Positions 7,354 to 64,000 of a DNA stretch of 64,000 bases are shown here, piece after piece (within the stretch, counting starts at the first letter, position 1; every line of letters starts with the position of its first letter). Origin of the DNA: Candidatus Woesearchaeota archaeon (GTDB taxonomy: Archaea > Nanobdellota > Nanobdellia > Woesearchaeales > JACJVV01); assembly GCA_047602755.1 (NCBI GenBank), contig JBLKOM010000005.1, positions 78,936 to 142,935 of the forward strand, given 5' to 3'. The notes beneath the pieces were generated by a model. The model worked only from the letters and a program-made list of their open reading frames with translations, was not told where the DNA came from and did no database searches. A program made the position numbers and the translations under genes.

Positions 7354-7857
7354 TTAATCCTTTTTAAATTCAAATTTATAGGATAATACGAAGAACAGAT
7401 CAGATAGTCTGTTTATGTATTTATATACTGATTCTCTTAATTGTTCATTACGCAGTAATTTTACAGCTTTTCTTTCTAGTGATCTTGTTCTAACCCGTGC
7501 TTCATTAAGATATACAGAAACTGGATGACTGAATCGTATAAATTTATTTGGTATTACATAGCTTAGATTAGAAATAACTAATTCCATTTCTTCAATATCT
7601 TTTTTTGTTACAAGCATAGACTCATCAGTTATATATCCTGAAATTTCACCTGCCATAAATCTTAGTTTATCTTGAATTCTTTCAATTAATTTAACATCTG
7701 TACTGCAATGTAATCGAACAAGATCTAATGCTGATTGAAGTTCATCTATTGCACCAACAGTATCAATAATTTCTGAATCTTTTGGAACTTTTGCATTTTT
7801 TATAGTGGTGCAACCAAAATCACCTATTTTTGTAGTAACTTTTGCCATCTTCATCAC
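7354..7857 (-). CDS. PduO-type ATP:cob(I)alamin adenosyltransferase
   Basis: TKIGDFGCTTI...IDTVGAIDELQSALDL matches the PduO/MMAB N-terminal signature (T-x-x-GD-x-G-x-T ... E-x-x-G-x-x-DEL). Size about 167 aa. Lies next to the adenosylcobalamin-dependent RNR. Confidence 0.75.
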   Translation of the reverse strand: MMKMAKVTTKIGDFGCTTIKNAKVPKDSEIIDTVGAIDELQSALDLVRLHCSTDVKLIERIQDKLRFMAGEISGYITDESMLVTKKDIEEMELVISNLSYVIPNKFIRFSHPVSVYLNEARVRTRSLERKAVKLLRNEQLRESVYKYINRLSDLFFVLSYKFEFKKD

Positions 7858-7902: not shown

Positions 7903-8124
7903 TTATATATCACATTTACTAAATCCACATTCATCATTAACACAGCTATGGCATCCACCTTCAACTTTAAGTGTTTGTTTACCGCATGCAGGACACTTTG
8001 CTAGTGTTAAGTCAGCAACTATTGAATTATCTGCAACTTCATTTACTTTTACAGTACTTGCATTTGTAAAAACTTCTTCATCTTCTTCTATTTCTTCAAT
8101 TGTAAAATAACTCACTATCTTCAC
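7903..8124 (-). CDS. Stand-alone Cys-rich zinc-finger protein corresponding to the C-terminal redox zinc finger of class II RNRs
   Basis: CPACGK...CHSCVNDECGFSKC, i.e. CxxC...CxxC plus extra Cys. A GTG start overlaps the nrdJ TGA stop (GTGA). Confidence 0.6.
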   Translation of the reverse strand: MKIVSYFTIEEIEEDEEVFTNASTVKVNEVADNSIVADLTLAKCPACGKQTLKVEGGCHSCVNDECGFSKCDI

Positions 8125-10970
8125 CTCTGTGCTTTTAATAAATGATATACTGTTGATAATTTACCATCAGGCATATGGATAACTGTATCTCCTTTGCCTT
8201 CAATTATAGAACCATCTGGTCCTGTAAGTTTATAGGATTTATCCTTAAATGTCTGAAATTCAGTCTTTTTTGCTTCTGATGACAAAATTGGGAATCTGCT
8301 TCCTTCACGGTAGATTGTTATACCTTTAAGATTATGTTTCCATGCATCTAAATAAATCTTTGAAATTGTTTCAGGTTCAATATCTTCTGGAAGATTCACT
8401 GTTGATGATATACTTTGATCAATATAATCTTGACATATTCCTTGAATTCTAACTCTTTTATGTGCATCAATATTATGAGCTGTTCTGAAAAAGTAAGGTG
8501 GAAGATATTTTTTTAACTCTTCTTCATTTGCATTTTTTGCTTTTTCTGTTAATCCTTTCTTGTCTAAATATGCTTGGACTGTTGGATGGAATACCTTAAA
8601 GAATACATTTCCAAAGGATTCACTTCTTCTAGTATAATACAATGCAAATATTGGTTCAACGCCACCACTCACTCCAATATAATTTTTGTTACCTTCTCTA
8701 AAACCAACACATATATTTGAAATAGTTCCTGTTGGTGCAATAGCCATTGTAGCAACATTTCTAACTCCATGTTGTTTTATTAGCGTTTTAACATCATCAT
8801 TAAGTGCTTCTTTAAAGAAAGGGCATTCACTATATTTAGAATAATCAAAAATAGGAATTGCTCCTTTTTCTTCTGCTAATAATGCAGTTGCTTCATAAGA
8901 TTTATTTGCAATATATTTCATTACTTTTTCAATAACTATAATACCTTCATCACTATCATAACCCATACCTAATTGATTTAACATGTCTGCAATTCCAATT
9001 ACTCCCATACCTATTCTTCGTGTTAATTTTGCAGCTTCACGTTGTGTATCAAGAGGATTCATTTTTTCATTCCAACTTATAACATTGTCTAAAAATCTAA
9101 CTAAAGTATGGATTGTTTCTCCTAACCTATCCCAGTTTATTTCTGCTGAATCAGTATATCCATTATCAACCATTCTTGACAAATTAACACTTCCTAAATT
9201 ACAAGCCCCACCTTTTTCAAGTGGAACTTCGCCACAAGGGTTTGTTGAAGAAATAGGTCTTCCTAAATAATTAGATGGACTATATCCAGCCATTCTTGAC
9301 CATAAAATTAGTCCTGGTTCTGCAGTCTTATAGTTTCCTTCTACAAAAAGATTCCATATATTTCTTGCTTTTACTAATTTTTTAATTTCACCAGTAGGCT
9401 TTGAATTAAAATAAAGCATATAATCTCCAGAAAATTTAATTGCTAATTGTGATTCACCTGTTTTAACTATAAAATCACCAAAAACATCTCTATGGTTTTG
9501 TTCATTTAAGTCATCTTTGTTTAATGGATTTAAGTATCCATGATTCTCTTTTAGATATTTATTTAGCTTTTCGATGTTGTCAAATTTTTCAAGAAGTTTA
9601 TACTTCTCAACAGGTTTTGAAGGCATACCAAACGAATAATTAACATTAGGTATATCTTGCATTTTTGGTGAATTGTCTACAGATTTATCCATTTCATATA
9701 CTAAAACTGTGTCTTTTCCATATTTATTTTGTTCTTCAACAGCTGTCATAAATTCATCAGTGACTTTTAAGCTAATATTTGCAAATCTTACTTGAGTGTT
9801 TTCTCTTACTTGTCTTTCAATTTCATTAAGATCTGCTTCATCAAATTTATTGGACCATTTACATTGTTCAACAATTTGGCTTGTGACCCAATTAGAAACT
9901 TTTTTTACTTGAACAAATGATTCAACATCAGGATGCTTTACATCTAATGTTAACATTAACGCTCCTCGCCTTCCAGATTGGCCAATTAATCCTGTTGTTA
10001 AGCTATATAATTCCATGAATGAGACTGCTCCTGTGCTATGATCTGCAGCATTATGAACTACTGCATTTTTTGGTCGAAGAACAGATATATCAATACCAAT
10101 CCCACCACCATAAGAATATGTTCTTGCAGCTTCAAAAGCAGCATTATATATTGATTCTATATTATCATCATCTATTAATGTAACAAAACAGTTAGATAGG
10201 GTTTTAAGCCTGTATAAGTCTCCTGCACCAGCATTTACTCTACCACCAGCAACAAAATATCCTTCATAAAAACAATCATAAAACTTTTTTGCCCAAGCTA
10301 ATTGTTTCTTTTCTGTTGGTTCAACTGTAGCCATAAAAGCAGATAATCTTGCAAACATATCTTCCGGTCGTTGTTCAATCGGATGCCCTTCAAGATCTTT
10401 TAAATAGTATTTCTTTCTAAAAATATTATCCGCTAAATCATTTCCACTTATATAATCATTTTCAGAATGAATTGGAAGTTCACCGCTTACTTGCATTTTT
10501 CTTAATCTGAAAAGAAGTACTTTATAATCATTTAACATATCTTTTTCAATTATATTACTTAATTTACTTTTATGCTTAAACATTTCAGCTATTTTAACAG
10601 ATACTTCATCATCTAATTCAATGTTTTCAAGTTCTAATTTTTGAAGTCTTTCAATTTCTCTCAGTTGTTTGTGCTTTTCTCTATAAAGAATAAATGCTTT
10701 AGCTGTTTTTGCATGACCTTGTTCAATCAATATTTTTTCAACTTCATCTTGAATTTGTTCAACATCTAATGGTTTATCAACATTATATTTATTTTTGATT
10801 GAAGAAATTACATTTTCACTTAATTCTTCTGCAACTGAGATATCTGACCCACCTACAGATTGGGCTGCTTTGTAAATAGCATTTGTAATCTTTTGTTTTT
10901 CAAAAGAAACAATTTCACCAGTTCTTTTTTTAACATTTAATTCAGATAATTGTTGAGTTGATAACACCAT
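8121..10970 (-). CDS. nrdJ: Class II (adenosylcobalamin-dependent) ribonucleotide reductase with N-terminal ATP cone
   Basis: ATP-cone-like N-terminus VKKRTGEIVSFEKQKI. Finger-loop NPCGEV, ACNLGSVNL and AIAPTGTIS motifs. 949 aa. Confidence 0.95.
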   Translation of the reverse strand: MVLSTQQLSELNVKKRTGEIVSFEKQKITNAIYKAAQSVGGSDISVAEELSENVISSIKNKYNVDKPLDVEQIQDEVEKILIEQGHAKTAKAFILYREKHKQLREIERLQKLELENIELDDEVSVKIAEMFKHKSKLSNIIEKDMLNDYKVLLFRLRKMQVSGELPIHSENDYISGNDLADNIFRKKYYLKDLEGHPIEQRPEDMFARLSAFMATVEPTEKKQLAWAKKFYDCFYEGYFVAGGRVNAGAGDLYRLKTLSNCFVTLIDDDNIESIYNAAFEAARTYSYGGGIGIDISVLRPKNAVVHNAADHSTGAVSFMELYSLTTGLIGQSGRRGALMLTLDVKHPDVESFVQVKKVSNWVTSQIVEQCKWSNKFDEADLNEIERQVRENTQVRFANISLKVTDEFMTAVEEQNKYGKDTVLVYEMDKSVDNSPKMQDIPNVNYSFGMPSKPVEKYKLLEKFDNIEKLNKYLKENHGYLNPLNKDDLNEQNHRDVFGDFIVKTGESQLAIKFSGDYMLYFNSKPTGEIKKLVKARNIWNLFVEGNYKTAEPGLILWSRMAGYSPSNYLGRPISSTNPCGEVPLEKGGACNLGSVNLSRMVDNGYTDSAEINWDRLGETIHTLVRFLDNVISWNEKMNPLDTQREAAKLTRRIGMGVIGIADMLNQLGMGYDSDEGIIVIEKVMKYIANKSYEATALLAEEKGAIPIFDYSKYSECPFFKEALNDDVKTLIKQHGVRNVATMAIAPTGTISNICVGFREGNKNYIGVSGGVEPIFALYYTRRSESFGNVFFKVFHPTVQAYLDKKGLTEKAKNANEEELKKYLPPYFFRTAHNIDAHKRVRIQGICQDYIDQSISSTVNLPEDIEPETISKIYLDAWKHNLKGITIYREGSRFPILSSEAKKTEFQTFKDKSYKLTGPDGSIIEGKGDTVIHMPDGKLSTVYHLLKAQR

Positions 10971-11019
10971 CTTTTTTTCACCTTTTGTCTTTTTTACTAT
11001 TTGTTAAGAGTTAATTTGA

Positions 11020-11066
11020 CCGCAATATATTGTGTTTTTTGGGTCATTAAACCACAACATGTTGTG
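11020..11066. promoter_or_regulatory. Two palindromes resembling NrdR boxes upstream of nrdJ, centres about 32 bp apart
   Basis: CGCAATATATTGTGT at 11021-11035 and the perfect palindrome CACAACATGTTGTG at 11053-11066. The NrdR consensus is acaCwAtATaTwGtgt. Confidence 0.5.
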
Positions 11067-11197
11067 TTTAATCATATCTTGGAATAACTTGTTTATATAC
11101 TTTATGTAAATAAAAAAGAGGTGTCCAATGGAATAATTATAAGCTATGTCTAAAATAGTAATAATAAAAAAAATAAATTGCTATTTTGTTAAATACT

Positions 11198-12265
11198 TTA
11201 ACATTCTGCGCAAAAACTGTTAATAGTCATTTGTTGATCAGCTTCAAATATTAAATTACTAACCTTAATACCTAGTAATCTAACTTTAGTTTCTTCGTTT
11301 GTACACTTTAAACTATTTAACAAATATTGAATTTTGTTTTTGATAATCTCTTTGGATGTCATTGGAATTTTTAATGATATATCACGAGATATTGTGTTAA
11401 AATCTGAAAATCTAACTTTTAGTGAAACTGTTTTAAAACTATATTTATCCATATCAAGTTCATTTATTAATTCAGTAATATAATTATCACAGTTTGTTAA
11501 AAATATATCTGTGTCAAATGTCATCTCTTTGCTTATTGATTTTCTTGGACCATATTCTTCATTAACTTTGCTTTTGTCATTACCTTTTGCTAATTCTTGT
11601 AGTCCAATTATCCAAGTACCAAAATTATCAATTAATTTGAAAGTATTATATTTAGCTAGGTTGTCTATTGTAAGGATATTTAGTTTTTTAAGTTTTTCAA
11701 ATGTTTTTTTCCCAATTCCTGAAATTTTAGTTACTTCTAGTGGTGCTAAAAAGCTCTTCATATCATTAACAACAGTTATTCCATATGGTTTTTTGAAGTC
11801 TGAAGCAATTTTAGCTACATATCTAGATTCAGAAACACCGATGGAACATTTTAATTTTGTTGTATTATATATATGATCTTGGATATATTTTGCAGCATCT
11901 TCAATATTAGGAAATCTTTTTGCAAATGCAGTAATATCTAGATAAGCCTCATCAATAGAAACTTGCTCAATAAATGTTGCAAACTTTTTTAATTCAAACA
12001 TTACATTAGAAGATTCATTTTTATATAATATGAAGTTAGGCTTTAGATATGTTCCGTTAGGGCAAAGTTTTATGGCTTTGCTAATGGGTAATGCACTTTT
12101 AAGGCCATATTTTCTTGCTTCATAATTTGCTGTGCATAAAACACCCCTATTTGATGAAGGTAGTGCACCTATTGCAACAGGTTTTCCAACTAAACTTGGA
12201 TCATATTTTTCTTCACATGCTGCAAAAAAACAATCCATATCAATATGAGCAATTATTTGTTTCAT
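11198..12265 (-). CDS. dinB: Y-family DNA polymerase IV (Dpo4/Dbh/DinB)
   Basis: N-terminal HIDMDCFFAACEE, followed by the SIDEAYLDIT and GIGKKT motifs typical of DinB/Dpo4. Confidence 0.9.
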   Translation of the reverse strand: MKQIIAHIDMDCFFAACEEKYDPSLVGKPVAIGALPSSNRGVLCTANYEARKYGLKSALPISKAIKLCPNGTYLKPNFILYKNESSNVMFELKKFATFIEQVSIDEAYLDITAFAKRFPNIEDAAKYIQDHIYNTTKLKCSIGVSESRYVAKIASDFKKPYGITVVNDMKSFLAPLEVTKISGIGKKTFEKLKKLNILTIDNLAKYNTFKLIDNFGTWIIGLQELAKGNDKSKVNEEYGPRKSISKEMTFDTDIFLTNCDNYITELINELDMDKYSFKTVSLKVRFSDFNTISRDISLKIPMTSKEIIKNKIQYLLNSLKCTNEETKVRLLGIKVSNLIFEADQQMTINSFCAEC

Positions 12266-61200: not shown

Positions 61201-61854
61201 TTATTTAATTAAATAGGAAACATCATCTCTGAATTGACTGGTATTTAGATTTCTTAATAATGGTAATTCATGAGCTATGCAAGTAAACACATCTTGTGTT
61301 ACTTGATCAAGATTACGATTAGTTGTATCAATAATATACCATCCTTCATTTTTTGCTGTTGACATAAAATATTCACGTGTCTTTCTTCGAAAAAAAGTAT
61401 CAGTTAAGATTCTTTCATCATGAGGTTCATTAATTCCTTGATTACGTTCATTTATTCTTCTAAATTGTTCTTCTTCGCTTACTGTTAATAAAATTGTAGC
61501 AACAGGTTTTTTTAGATCATAATTTTCTGCATTTTTTATTGCTTGATTGACTGATTTGCCAAAGAGTAAGCTATTAGATATTATTGTGCTATGCATATAT
61601 CGACCAAGTAGATAAATGTCTTCAGGTGATAACTCACTTAATGTAAATTCATTGCCTTTCATGAAATAATTAAAACGTGAGTCAAAAGTATTATTCGGTT
61701 TTGGAAATTCAGCAATATATCTTTTAGAGGGTGTTTCTAGGTATTTAATTCCTAATTTTTCAATATTTTTTCCTACACTAGTCTTTCCTGAGCCATCTAT
61801 TCCCTCGAGTACAAAAAAATCAATACTTTCTTCGCTATTAATTTGTTGAATCAT
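61201..61854 (-). CDS. Thymidylate-kinase-like P-loop (d)NMP kinase
   Basis: P-loop FFVLEGIDGSGKTS is Tmk-type. It has a Tmk-like lid/DRY-like region but is otherwise divergent. Confidence 0.6.
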   Translation of the reverse strand: MIQQINSEESIDFFVLEGIDGSGKTSVGKNIEKLGIKYLETPSKRYIAEFPKPNNTFDSRFNYFMKGNEFTLSELSPEDIYLLGRYMHSTIISNSLLFGKSVNQAIKNAENYDLKKPVATILLTVSEEEQFRRINERNQGINEPHDERILTDTFFRRKTREYFMSTAKNEGWYIIDTTNRNLDQVTQDVFTCIAHELPLLRNLNTSQFRDDVSYLIK

Positions 61855-62425
61855 TTTTTACCCCATTATTAAAAAAAGAATTTTTCTCCATATATAATGA
61901 AGTTATACTTGTATCTATTCTATCATTTTCATCTATACCTAAATCATCCATCAATGAATGAATTAAATCTTTATTTTTCTGGAATTCACCACTGTCTATT
62001 ATTTCAACCTCAATACATAAAGGAAAATTTTCAAACTTTTCAATGTTAATACACATTTTTTCATTTTTATATGTCTCTCGTTTCTTTTTTACCGTACAAA
62101 ATACTTTGAATCCTAAAATATCCAGTATTTTTTGCATTGATTTCACATCTTTGAATTCAGTCTCGGATTCATCAAAAATTTGATGATCAGATTCATTTAC
62201 AATTGTCTTTATAGTTAATTCAGGGTATTTATTATCTTGAAGTCTTATCCTTAGACCATAAGAACCAACTTTATTCATTTTAGTATCTGCATAACTTTGT
62301 ATTGATTTTTTGCAATACCAAATATCTTCAATTGATGTTTCACTAATTTTTTTAATTCCTTTTAATTCTAATTGTTTTCTTAATAATTCTTCATTCTTAA
62401 TATAAGATCTTATTTCGATTTCCAT
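61838..62425 (-). CDS. CYTH-domain protein (CyaB/thiamine-triphosphatase-like triphosphate tunnel enzyme)
   Basis: N-terminal EIEIR...K and later E-x-E-x-E acidic patterns on alternating beta-strands. About 195 aa. Confidence 0.55.
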   Translation of the reverse strand: MEIEIRSYIKNEELLRKQLELKGIKKISETSIEDIWYCKKSIQSYADTKMNKVGSYGLRIRLQDNKYPELTIKTIVNESDHQIFDESETEFKDVKSMQKILDILGFKVFCTVKKKRETYKNEKMCINIEKFENFPLCIEVEIIDSGEFQKNKDLIHSLMDDLGIDENDRIDTSITSLYMEKNSFFNNGVKNDSTN

Positions 62426-62437
62426 TTTATTTCCTCA

Positions 62438-63973
62438 TTATTTCTTTAAGCCTATTGGTTGATGCATTTTACTTTGATCGCGATAAATTGTTATACCTTT
62501 TAGTCCTAGTTTCATTGCTTCAACATATATTGATTTAACATCTTCTGGTGATGCATATTGATTGATATTTACTGTTTTTGAGATAGCTTCATCTGTGAAT
62601 TTTTGGAATGCAGACACTATTGCAAGTTGCCTATCAGCTGAGATATCTAATTGAGATAAATAAATATTCCGAATTTCTTCAGGTATTAAAATTGGATCAC
62701 CTTGGTCTTTTAATTCTAATATTTTTTCAATTGCAGGTTTAACATAACCATATTCTTCTAATTGGTTGTATAACACTTCTCTCATGTTTGTTGATAATTT
62801 ATCTGAAAAATATGGTTCAATAGATGGACTTGCATCAATAACAAGTGAGCTTCTTCCAGTGGGAGGTAAAGCAGTAGTACTTACATGTCTTATTCCAGTC
62901 TTAGCTATTGTTTCTTCTAGCTCAATCCAATCTCTTACAGTCACCATTGCAGTAGAATATTTCCCAAATCTATCTGCAATATATCCTTTCCCAATTTTAG
63001 TTTCAGTATCATAAAAGGCAGGGAATGGTCCACGTTCTTTTGATAGTTCTATTGAAGCTTCTTTAGAGGTATAATTTACAAAACTCATTAGTTCTTCGGC
63101 AATTATTTCTGCATCAAATGAATCATAAGGAATTTTTAATTTTGCTAACATATCAGCAAATCCGCAAATCCCTAATCCTATTTTTCTTTTTTTATTCATT
63201 ATATCTACACTTGTGTCATTACCATAATTTGATATGCTTATATCTAATGCATCATCAAGAAATCTTACAACATCATGTATTGCTCGTCTTAATTCAGAAT
63301 ATGAAATTCTATTTTTATCTACAAATGCACCTACATTAAGATATGTAAATTGACATGTTTCACCTTCAGTCATTGCTATTTCACCGCAAGGAGCTAATGA
63401 AACATATTTTCCAAGGTGTGGTGCAGGATTATCTGTTTCAAACCGATCTAAAAAAGCAAGACCTGGATCTCCACATTCCCATGCAGAATTAACTATCTTT
63501 TCAAGTAATTCATTTGGATCAACAAAACTTCCATCTGATAATGTATAAACACTATTATTAAATAAAACTTTTACAAATTCATTTGGAACATTTACTGAAA
63601 TGTTAAAAATCCATTCTTTGTCTTTTGATTTTGTTTTACTTTCTATAAATTCAAATATCTTTGGATGATTTAAAGATATTATACCCATATTTCCTACAGG
63701 CCTATCTTGTTTGCCACTGTATTGCCCTTTAATTGCTACTTCATTTAGATAATTAAGCATCTCTACAGGATTATCACATTCATCAAAATTAAAACCAGTT
63801 CCCATCCCATTGATATGGTATTGATCTACAATTGCTTTAATTTTATTTAAATCATCACGAAGACTTATTGGAGGAACTGAACAAGCAGCTAATGGTTTAT
63901 CTTTATACCTACCTGCATTTGTCAGAAGGGTTGTGCTAGGGACAAATTGTTTACCATATAATCTTTTTGTCAT
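62438..63973 (-). CDS. nrdJ: Second class II ribonucleotide reductase paralogue lacking the ATP cone and C-terminal zinc finger
   Basis: FVPSTTLLTNAG, LAACSV, APCGEI and GETCQF(TYLNV) motifs, plus TTALPPTGRSS. 511 aa. Confidence 0.85.
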   Translation of the reverse strand: MTKRLYGKQFVPSTTLLTNAGRYKDKPLAACSVPPISLRDDLNKIKAIVDQYHINGMGTGFNFDECDNPVEMLNYLNEVAIKGQYSGKQDRPVGNMGIISLNHPKIFEFIESKTKSKDKEWIFNISVNVPNEFVKVLFNNSVYTLSDGSFVDPNELLEKIVNSAWECGDPGLAFLDRFETDNPAPHLGKYVSLAPCGEIAMTEGETCQFTYLNVGAFVDKNRISYSELRRAIHDVVRFLDDALDISISNYGNDTSVDIMNKKRKIGLGICGFADMLAKLKIPYDSFDAEIIAEELMSFVNYTSKEASIELSKERGPFPAFYDTETKIGKGYIADRFGKYSTAMVTVRDWIELEETIAKTGIRHVSTTALPPTGRSSLVIDASPSIEPYFSDKLSTNMREVLYNQLEEYGYVKPAIEKILELKDQGDPILIPEEIRNIYLSQLDISADRQLAIVSAFQKFTDEAISKTVNINQYASPEDVKSIYVEAMKLGLKGITIYRDQSKMHQPIGLKK

Positions 63974-64000
63974 TCGTTCTTTAAAATCAATTATCTCTTT

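Follow-up and report, generated by a model that had tools for sequence, protein, structure and literature searches.

The 64-kb window, by which we mean the whole stretch of 64,000 nucleotides that was analysed, carries on its minus strand a gene for a class II (adenosylcobalamin-dependent) ribonucleotide reductase (RNR), nrdJ (8121..10970), recognised with TIGR02504 and Pfam. NrdJ scores 496.2 bits against TIGR02504, above the curated equivalog cut-off of 399.95, and contains the RNR barrel domain (PF02867, Ribonuc_red_lgC; E = 7.6e-102); these two properties identify it as a class II RNR. The protein also has a Ribonuc_red_lgN domain and, at its N terminus, an ATP-cone (PF03477; E = 2.2e-19). 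A Shine-Dalgarno-like GGTGA can be read from the sequence 7 nt upstream of the nrdJ ATG (10978..10982, minus strand), and GGTGA is also present in the related loci L003, L014, L034 and L035.

The Cys-rich C-terminal tail of NrdJ is encoded by a separate ORF of 73 amino acids (7903..8124, minus strand), which matches positions 707-758 of NF006417 and whose translation contains the motif CPACG...CHSC...C. Because the GTG start of this ORF overlaps the TGA stop codon of nrdJ (GTGA, 8121-8124), the tail is probably co-transcribed with nrdJ; translation could also begin at 8115, where an in-frame GTG follows a GGTGA. The split between nrdJ and the tail is also found in two close relatives, L003 and L001. 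Since it is shared, it reads as a conserved two-gene or recoded arrangement and not as a sequencing error. Directly downstream of nrdJ and the tail ORF is a gene for a PduO-type cob(I)alamin adenosyltransferase, the enzyme that makes the NrdJ cofactor (pduO, 7354..7857, minus strand; PF01923 and TIGR00636). The gene order is the same in L003 and L001, and pduO is probably the last or next gene of the nrdJ operon.

At a distance of 50-97 nt upstream from the ATG of nrdJ (10970) are two 16-bp boxes. The promoter-distal box is at 11052-11067 (CCACAACATGTTGTGT on the plus strand, ACACAACATGTTGTGG on the nrdJ sense strand) and the promoter-proximal box is at 11020-11035 (CCGCAATATATTGTGT on the plus strand, ACACAATATATTGCGG on the sense strand), with a linker of 16 bp between them (11036-11051); both boxes and the linker are assigned to the minus strand, as is nrdJ. 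Read along the sense strand, the order is ACACAACATGTTGTGG (distal), the 16-nt linker, ACACAATATATTGCGG (proximal), 37 nt, GGTGA, 7 nt and the ATG. The first-pass annotation had described this region, as 11020-11066, as a tandem pair of palindromes resembling NrdR boxes. The description is accurate, and the span needs extending by one position, to the end of the full 16-bp distal box at 11067. The perfect 14-bp palindrome that it reported is CACAACATGTTGTG, which we find at 11053-11066. The spacing of about 32 bp between box centres likewise holds: the centres are at 11027/28 and 11059/60, 32 bp apart and separated by the 16-bp linker.

Pairs of NrdR boxes are described as two 16-bp boxes with a linker of 15-16 bp, in which C4, A6, A8, T9, T11 and G13 are highly conserved (PMC13584703). 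All six of these positions are present in both boxes upstream of nrdJ (12/12 core positions), the linker fits the 15-16 bp rule (PMC13584703), and the pair occupies the position of an RNR promoter. Relative to the 16-mer NrdR-box consensus that we used, acaCwAtATaTwGtgt (ACACWATATATWGTGT), the proximal box has two mismatches and the distal box has three. The pair therefore shows every sequence-level feature by which NrdR operators are recognised (PMC13584703), as the initial reading of the palindromes had proposed, and the comparative data described below reinforce that reading. We propose, with a probability of roughly 85%, that the palindrome pair constitutes a canonical NrdR operator, located in the promoter of the nrdJ, tail ORF and pduO operon of a Woesearchaeota-like DPANN archaeon.

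Could two AT-rich palindromes arise here by chance and have no function? The GC content of the window is 27%, and loose single-box matches are common in such DNA. With up to three mismatches to the consensus, six matches were found in the window and 3.5 were expected, which is not rare. Single boxes with all six core positions number 26 in the window, and a rough estimate from base composition predicts ~20. The tandem arrangement, in contrast, is rare. A 12/12 pair with a 15-16 bp linker (as a regular expression, NNNCNANATNTNGNNN-N(15,16)-NNNCNANATNTNGNNN) is expected 0.007 times per 64 kb, as estimated with Markov-1 shuffles. Exactly one pair in the window scores at least 11/12, namely the pair upstream of nrdJ, which scores 12/12; the two-box core scan found no second tandem NrdR site elsewhere in the 64-kb window. 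Moreover, the pair is placed exactly upstream of an RNR gene and is kept in orthologous promoters. The statistics and the conservation together effectively refute an origin by chance.

One of the single boxes in the window, TCACGAGATATTGTGT, lies at 11382-11397, inside dinB (11198-12265, minus strand). It has the six core positions and no partner box. Given that there are 26 such single boxes in the window, we do not regard it as an NrdR site; it is most likely a chance match.

When species-representative genomes were scanned with NrdJ as the query, 39 loci were returned. The best NrdJ matches are in Woesearchaeota-type DPANN genomes: L003 (isolate HK-STAS-Nano-4, JACJVV01), with 83% amino acid identity, and L001, with 68%. 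The window is syntenic with L003 across dinB, nrdJ, the tail ORF, pduO and further. Tandem sites scoring at least 11/12 are found no more than 1.1 kb upstream of nrdJ or nrdR-nrdJ in 20 of the 39 related loci, including L003 and L001 (40.7 kb searched); the remaining 577 kb of fetched DNA contains four. In L003 and L001, the site is at the same position as in the window and has the same 16-bp linker. Orthologous RNR promoters thus share the site.

Aligning the intergenic DNA of the window, L003 and L001 three ways gives a more precise picture of what is kept. Invariant columns make up 11/12 of a BRE/TATA-like element, 12/16 of the distal box and 10/16 of the proximal box. The linker is poorly conserved (6/16), and in the rest of the intergenic DNA 42 of 173 columns (24%) are invariant. 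GC content across the three genomes ranges from 27 to 39%. The pattern is a phylogenetic footprint of three elements, these being the putative promoter and the two boxes.

Relatives of this nrdJ are not confined to archaea. Genes from Zixibacteria and Marinimicrobia (L008, L009, L015-L019, L023, L025, L027, L028 and L039) are ~60% identical to the archaeal nrdJ, as near as many from Woesearchaeota, and several of these loci have tandem boxes with a 15-bp linker. This level of identity suggests inter-domain exchange of the nrdJ type, perhaps as a module of nrdJ plus its operator.

The archaeal promoters of the nrdJ family have an A-rich BRE followed by a TATA octamer, which is AAAG-TATATAAA in the window and TTTAAATA in others. 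Of the 17 archaeal promoters examined, 14 have a TATA-like octamer located 17-30 nt before the distal box. The predicted BRE/TATA element of the window (AAAG-TATATAAA on the sense strand; 11092..11103, minus strand) is the putative promoter element with 11 of 12 columns invariant, and 24 nt separate its end from the distal box in the window, in L003 and in L026. The same layout, BRE/TATA and then boxes, is found again in other DPANN archaea, ahead of an nrdR-nrdJ operon (L045) and an nrdR-nrdD operon (L048). The usual centre of an archaeal TATA box is near -26/-27. Since the conserved BRE/TATA element is 24 nt upstream of the boxes, we infer that transcription starts near 11069, immediately before the distal box, which would place the operator at ~+3 to +50. 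In those promoters with a gap of 17 nt, the distal box would overlap the start. NrdR boxes in other systems overlap the transcription start or the RNA polymerase site (PMC13584703, PMC9110341). We also considered a bacterial sigma-70 promoter, and rejected it: four matches were found and 2.8 were expected, which is the level of chance, and such a promoter is not applicable to an archaeon.

If transcription starts where the TATA element predicts, both boxes are transcribed, and the palindromes could instead act in RNA as hairpins of the 5ʹ leader, for example as an attenuator or a cofactor-sensing leader. However, the predicted leader folds no better than shuffled sequences (z = -0.34), and no Rfam family matches at gathering score. 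What is conserved is a set of specific bases (C4, A6, A8, T9, T11 and G13) and not pairing; indeed, the outer positions of the proximal box are non-complementary. The motif is also documented as a DNA site in bacteria (PMC9110341). We therefore consider an RNA-level element very unlikely, and favour an NrdR operator that acts as DNA.

Where is the cognate repressor encoded? No nrdR was found in the 64-kb window with phmmer, using an E. coli NrdR sequence as the query, or with a profile of 120 DPANN NrdRs; the sole match, a weak one, was to the NrdJ ATP-cone. This is in line with the first-pass annotation, which had seen no nrdR in the window. Nor was nrdR found in the fetched flanks of L003 (3.6 kb upstream and 10 kb downstream) or L001 (10 kb each side). 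Among the related archaeal loci, nrdR adjoins nrdJ in 14, as detected by hmmsearch, either immediately upstream or 1-2 kb downstream. Thirteen full-length archaeal NrdRs match the E. coli NrdR query with phmmer E-values of 1e-36 to 1e-44, and the four archaeal NrdRs scanned against TIGR00244 score 174-199 bits (cut-off 125). Both CxxC pairs, D15, R17 and RRRR are kept in 13/13 of the full-length proteins. Of these residues, D15, R17 and the RRRR arginines are those that touch DNA in S. coelicolor NrdR, as seen by cryo-EM of its complex with DNA (PMC9110341). These archaeal relatives have true NrdR proteins. A database search with one of them returned thousands of relatives, and those named NrdR by NCBI include proteins from Woesearchaeota, Nanoarchaeota, Nanoarchaeia, Aenigmarchaeota and Micrarchaeia. 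These bona fide nrdR genes beside nrdJ, together with the report of NrdR in 22% of archaeal genomes (PMC13584703), largely dispel the initial concern over NrdR being mainly bacterial.

Genomic contexts of nrdR were also read from the contigs of three NCBI/JGI NrdR matches on long contigs, all of them from genomes other than JACJVV01. Tandem boxes accompany nrdR-nrdJ-cobA in L045 and nrdR-nrdD-nrdG in L048. In L046 and L047, no RNR gene is linked to nrdR and no boxes precede it, so it is not autoregulated there. L046 and L047 thus provide a DPANN precedent for a repressor gene at a distance from its target. A TP_methylase (PF00590) gene is the neighbour of nrdR in each of three unrelated contigs from DPANN archaea (L046 5001-5456, L047 1307-1762 and L048 3787-5444).

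With no nrdR in the window, the first-pass annotation had offered two alternatives: a regulator encoded elsewhere, or use of the sites by a different factor, possibly the ATP-cone-bearing RNR itself. The evidence favours the first, which would mean that this genome has an nrdR outside the window. We found no support for the RNR as the user of the sites. NrdR contacts DNA through its Zn-ribbon (PMC9110341), and NrdJ has no Zn-ribbon.

The second alternative deserves consideration in a broader form, in which the boxes are an orphan operator. The boxes would have been acquired by horizontal transfer or by descent, and nrdR would have been lost from the lineage of the window, L003 and L001, leaving either a decaying relic or a site for a different DNA-binding factor. 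Such a history would account for the lack of nrdR in the 64-kb window and in the fetched flanks of L003 and L001, and transfer of a module is suggested by the nrdJ type common to Zixibacteria and Marinimicrobia. It fits poorly with the retention of a 12/12 core and a linker of exactly 16 bp across three genomes, given that the intergenic DNA around the site is 24% invariant and that GC content varies as widely as described above. In addition, nrdR genes unlinked to RNR genes are seen in other DPANN genomes, and we know of no other factor that recognises the NrdR-box motif. Hence, we think an orphan operator unlikely. We view as improbable, too, a more radical scenario in which this lineage has no nrdR and the conserved operator has passed to another factor, whether a different DNA-binding protein of the archaeon or NrdR from a host or symbiont partner. 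In a milder version, DPANN NrdR would act on an archaeal promoter as a roadblock downstream of the TATA element and, by way of pduO or cobA, link the sensing of dNTPs to activation of the B12 cofactor. The reading that we prefer is a functional NrdR operator with its repressor encoded elsewhere in the genome.

How might such an operator work? We modelled a mechanism for the archaeal site on studies of Streptomyces and E. coli NrdR. ATP-loaded NrdR is a dodecamer that is unable to bind DNA. With dATP and ATP, NrdR forms an octamer, and tetramers derived from the octamer bind DNA. The tetramer has two pairs of Zn-ribbons ~80 Å apart, which sit on boxes about three helical turns apart, and it bends the DNA sharply, blocking RNA polymerase (PMC9110341). 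By analogy, an NrdR with a Zn-ribbon and an ATP-cone, encoded outside the 64-kb window, would form a dATP/ATP-loaded tetramer when dATP rises relative to ATP. The two Zn-ribbon pairs of the tetramer, also about three helical turns apart, would bind both boxes and bend the DNA sharply. The distal box begins ~24 nt after the TATA element, so that the operator would lie within the first ~50 nt of the predicted transcript, from about +3. Bound NrdR would leave the BRE/TATA element open to TBP and TFB, and would block recruitment or escape of RNA polymerase. Such a block would shut off synthesis of both the reductase and the enzyme that activates its B12 cofactor. With ATP alone, NrdR would be confined to a state unable to bind DNA, and transcription of the operon would proceed. 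Other archaeal repressors that bind downstream of the TATA box occlude RNA polymerase and leave the TBP and TFB sites free, and the position of the nrdJ operator fits repression through a block to RNA polymerase.

Activation of the B12 cofactor is probably under the control of the NrdR site as well. Because the order nrdJ, tail ORF, pduO is kept among the closest relatives, and because a nrdR-nrdJ-cobA arrangement is found in L045, the gene neighbourhoods suggest that cofactor activation is co-regulated with the reductase.

The window contains a second RNR gene, at its far end. This gene encodes a short NrdJ-like protein without an ATP-cone (62438 to beyond 64000, minus strand), and its start is past the end of the window. 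It heads an operon of RNR, CYTH and Tmk (thymidylate kinase) genes (61201-64000 in the window, minus strand) that is kept in the metagenomic relatives L041-L043, and in one relative (P0124, L044) the RNR and CYTH proteins are fused. The nearest homologues of the second RNR include proteins of Patescibacteria (CPR). We found no NrdR boxes upstream of the relatives of this gene in L040 (a metagenome; 51% identity) or in L041-L044 (the best second-RNR relatives in the protein database; 55-58%), a result with little bearing on the genome studied here. In L041 (1-261), a leader of ~150 nt separates a TATA-like element, GATTATATATAAAG, from the point where translation of the short RNR begins, and may have a regulatory role that has gone unrecognised.

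The proposed operator is closely similar to those described for S. coelicolor nrdRJ and nrdAB and for E. coli nrdAB, nrdHIEF and nrdDG (PMC9110341, PMC13584703, PMC12176259). As in those bacteria, there are two partially palindromic 16-bp boxes with the same core, a linker of 15-16 bp that sets the centres about three helical turns apart, and a location in an RNR promoter, which for the archaeal site would be close to the predicted start. The target, a class II nrdJ, is one shared with S. coelicolor. In contrast to the bacterial operators, whose boxes overlap the -35/-10 hexamers, the proposed archaeal operator has a predicted BRE/TATA element 24 nt upstream of the distal box, and the machinery to be blocked would be an archaeal RNA polymerase with TBP and TFB. 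A further difference is that nrdR is not adjacent to nrdJ in the window.

Archaeal precedents are also available for comparison. Halobacterial nrdR-nrdA/B operons were acquired from bacteria (PMC3019208). They resemble the system proposed here in combining an archaeal host with a bacterial-type NrdR system, and in both cases there are signs of inter-domain exchange of RNR genes. However, the host is here a DPANN (Woesearchaeota-like) archaeon, and the target is a class II nrdJ with a B12 adenosyltransferase gene, whereas the haloarchaeal target is class I. The DPANN operons of L045 and L048 are closer in layout, with a BRE/TATA element, a gap of 17-24 nt and tandem boxes, and in L045 nrdJ is likewise coupled to a cobalamin adenosyltransferase gene. 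In L045 and L048, the operon begins with nrdR, which would hence be autoregulated. The operon in the window, in contrast, starts with nrdJ, and its repressor would act in trans.

A search of a literature library found no paper that names NrdR together with DPANN, Nanoarchaeota or Woesearchaeota. Nonetheless, since about a fifth of archaeal genomes are known to have NrdR and annotation pipelines already assign the name in Woesearchaeota, we regard the site as a well-formed yet unremarkable case of a known system that leaves the general picture of NrdR biology unchanged. Its value lies in the setting: a clean and conserved site for a bacterial-type nucleotide-sensing repressor, embedded in an archaeal BRE/TATA promoter of a genome-reduced DPANN host. 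It may provide a system in which to test how NrdR represses an archaeal, eukaryote-like RNA polymerase. The site further suggests that the enzyme activating the NrdJ cofactor, B12, belongs to the NrdR regulon here.
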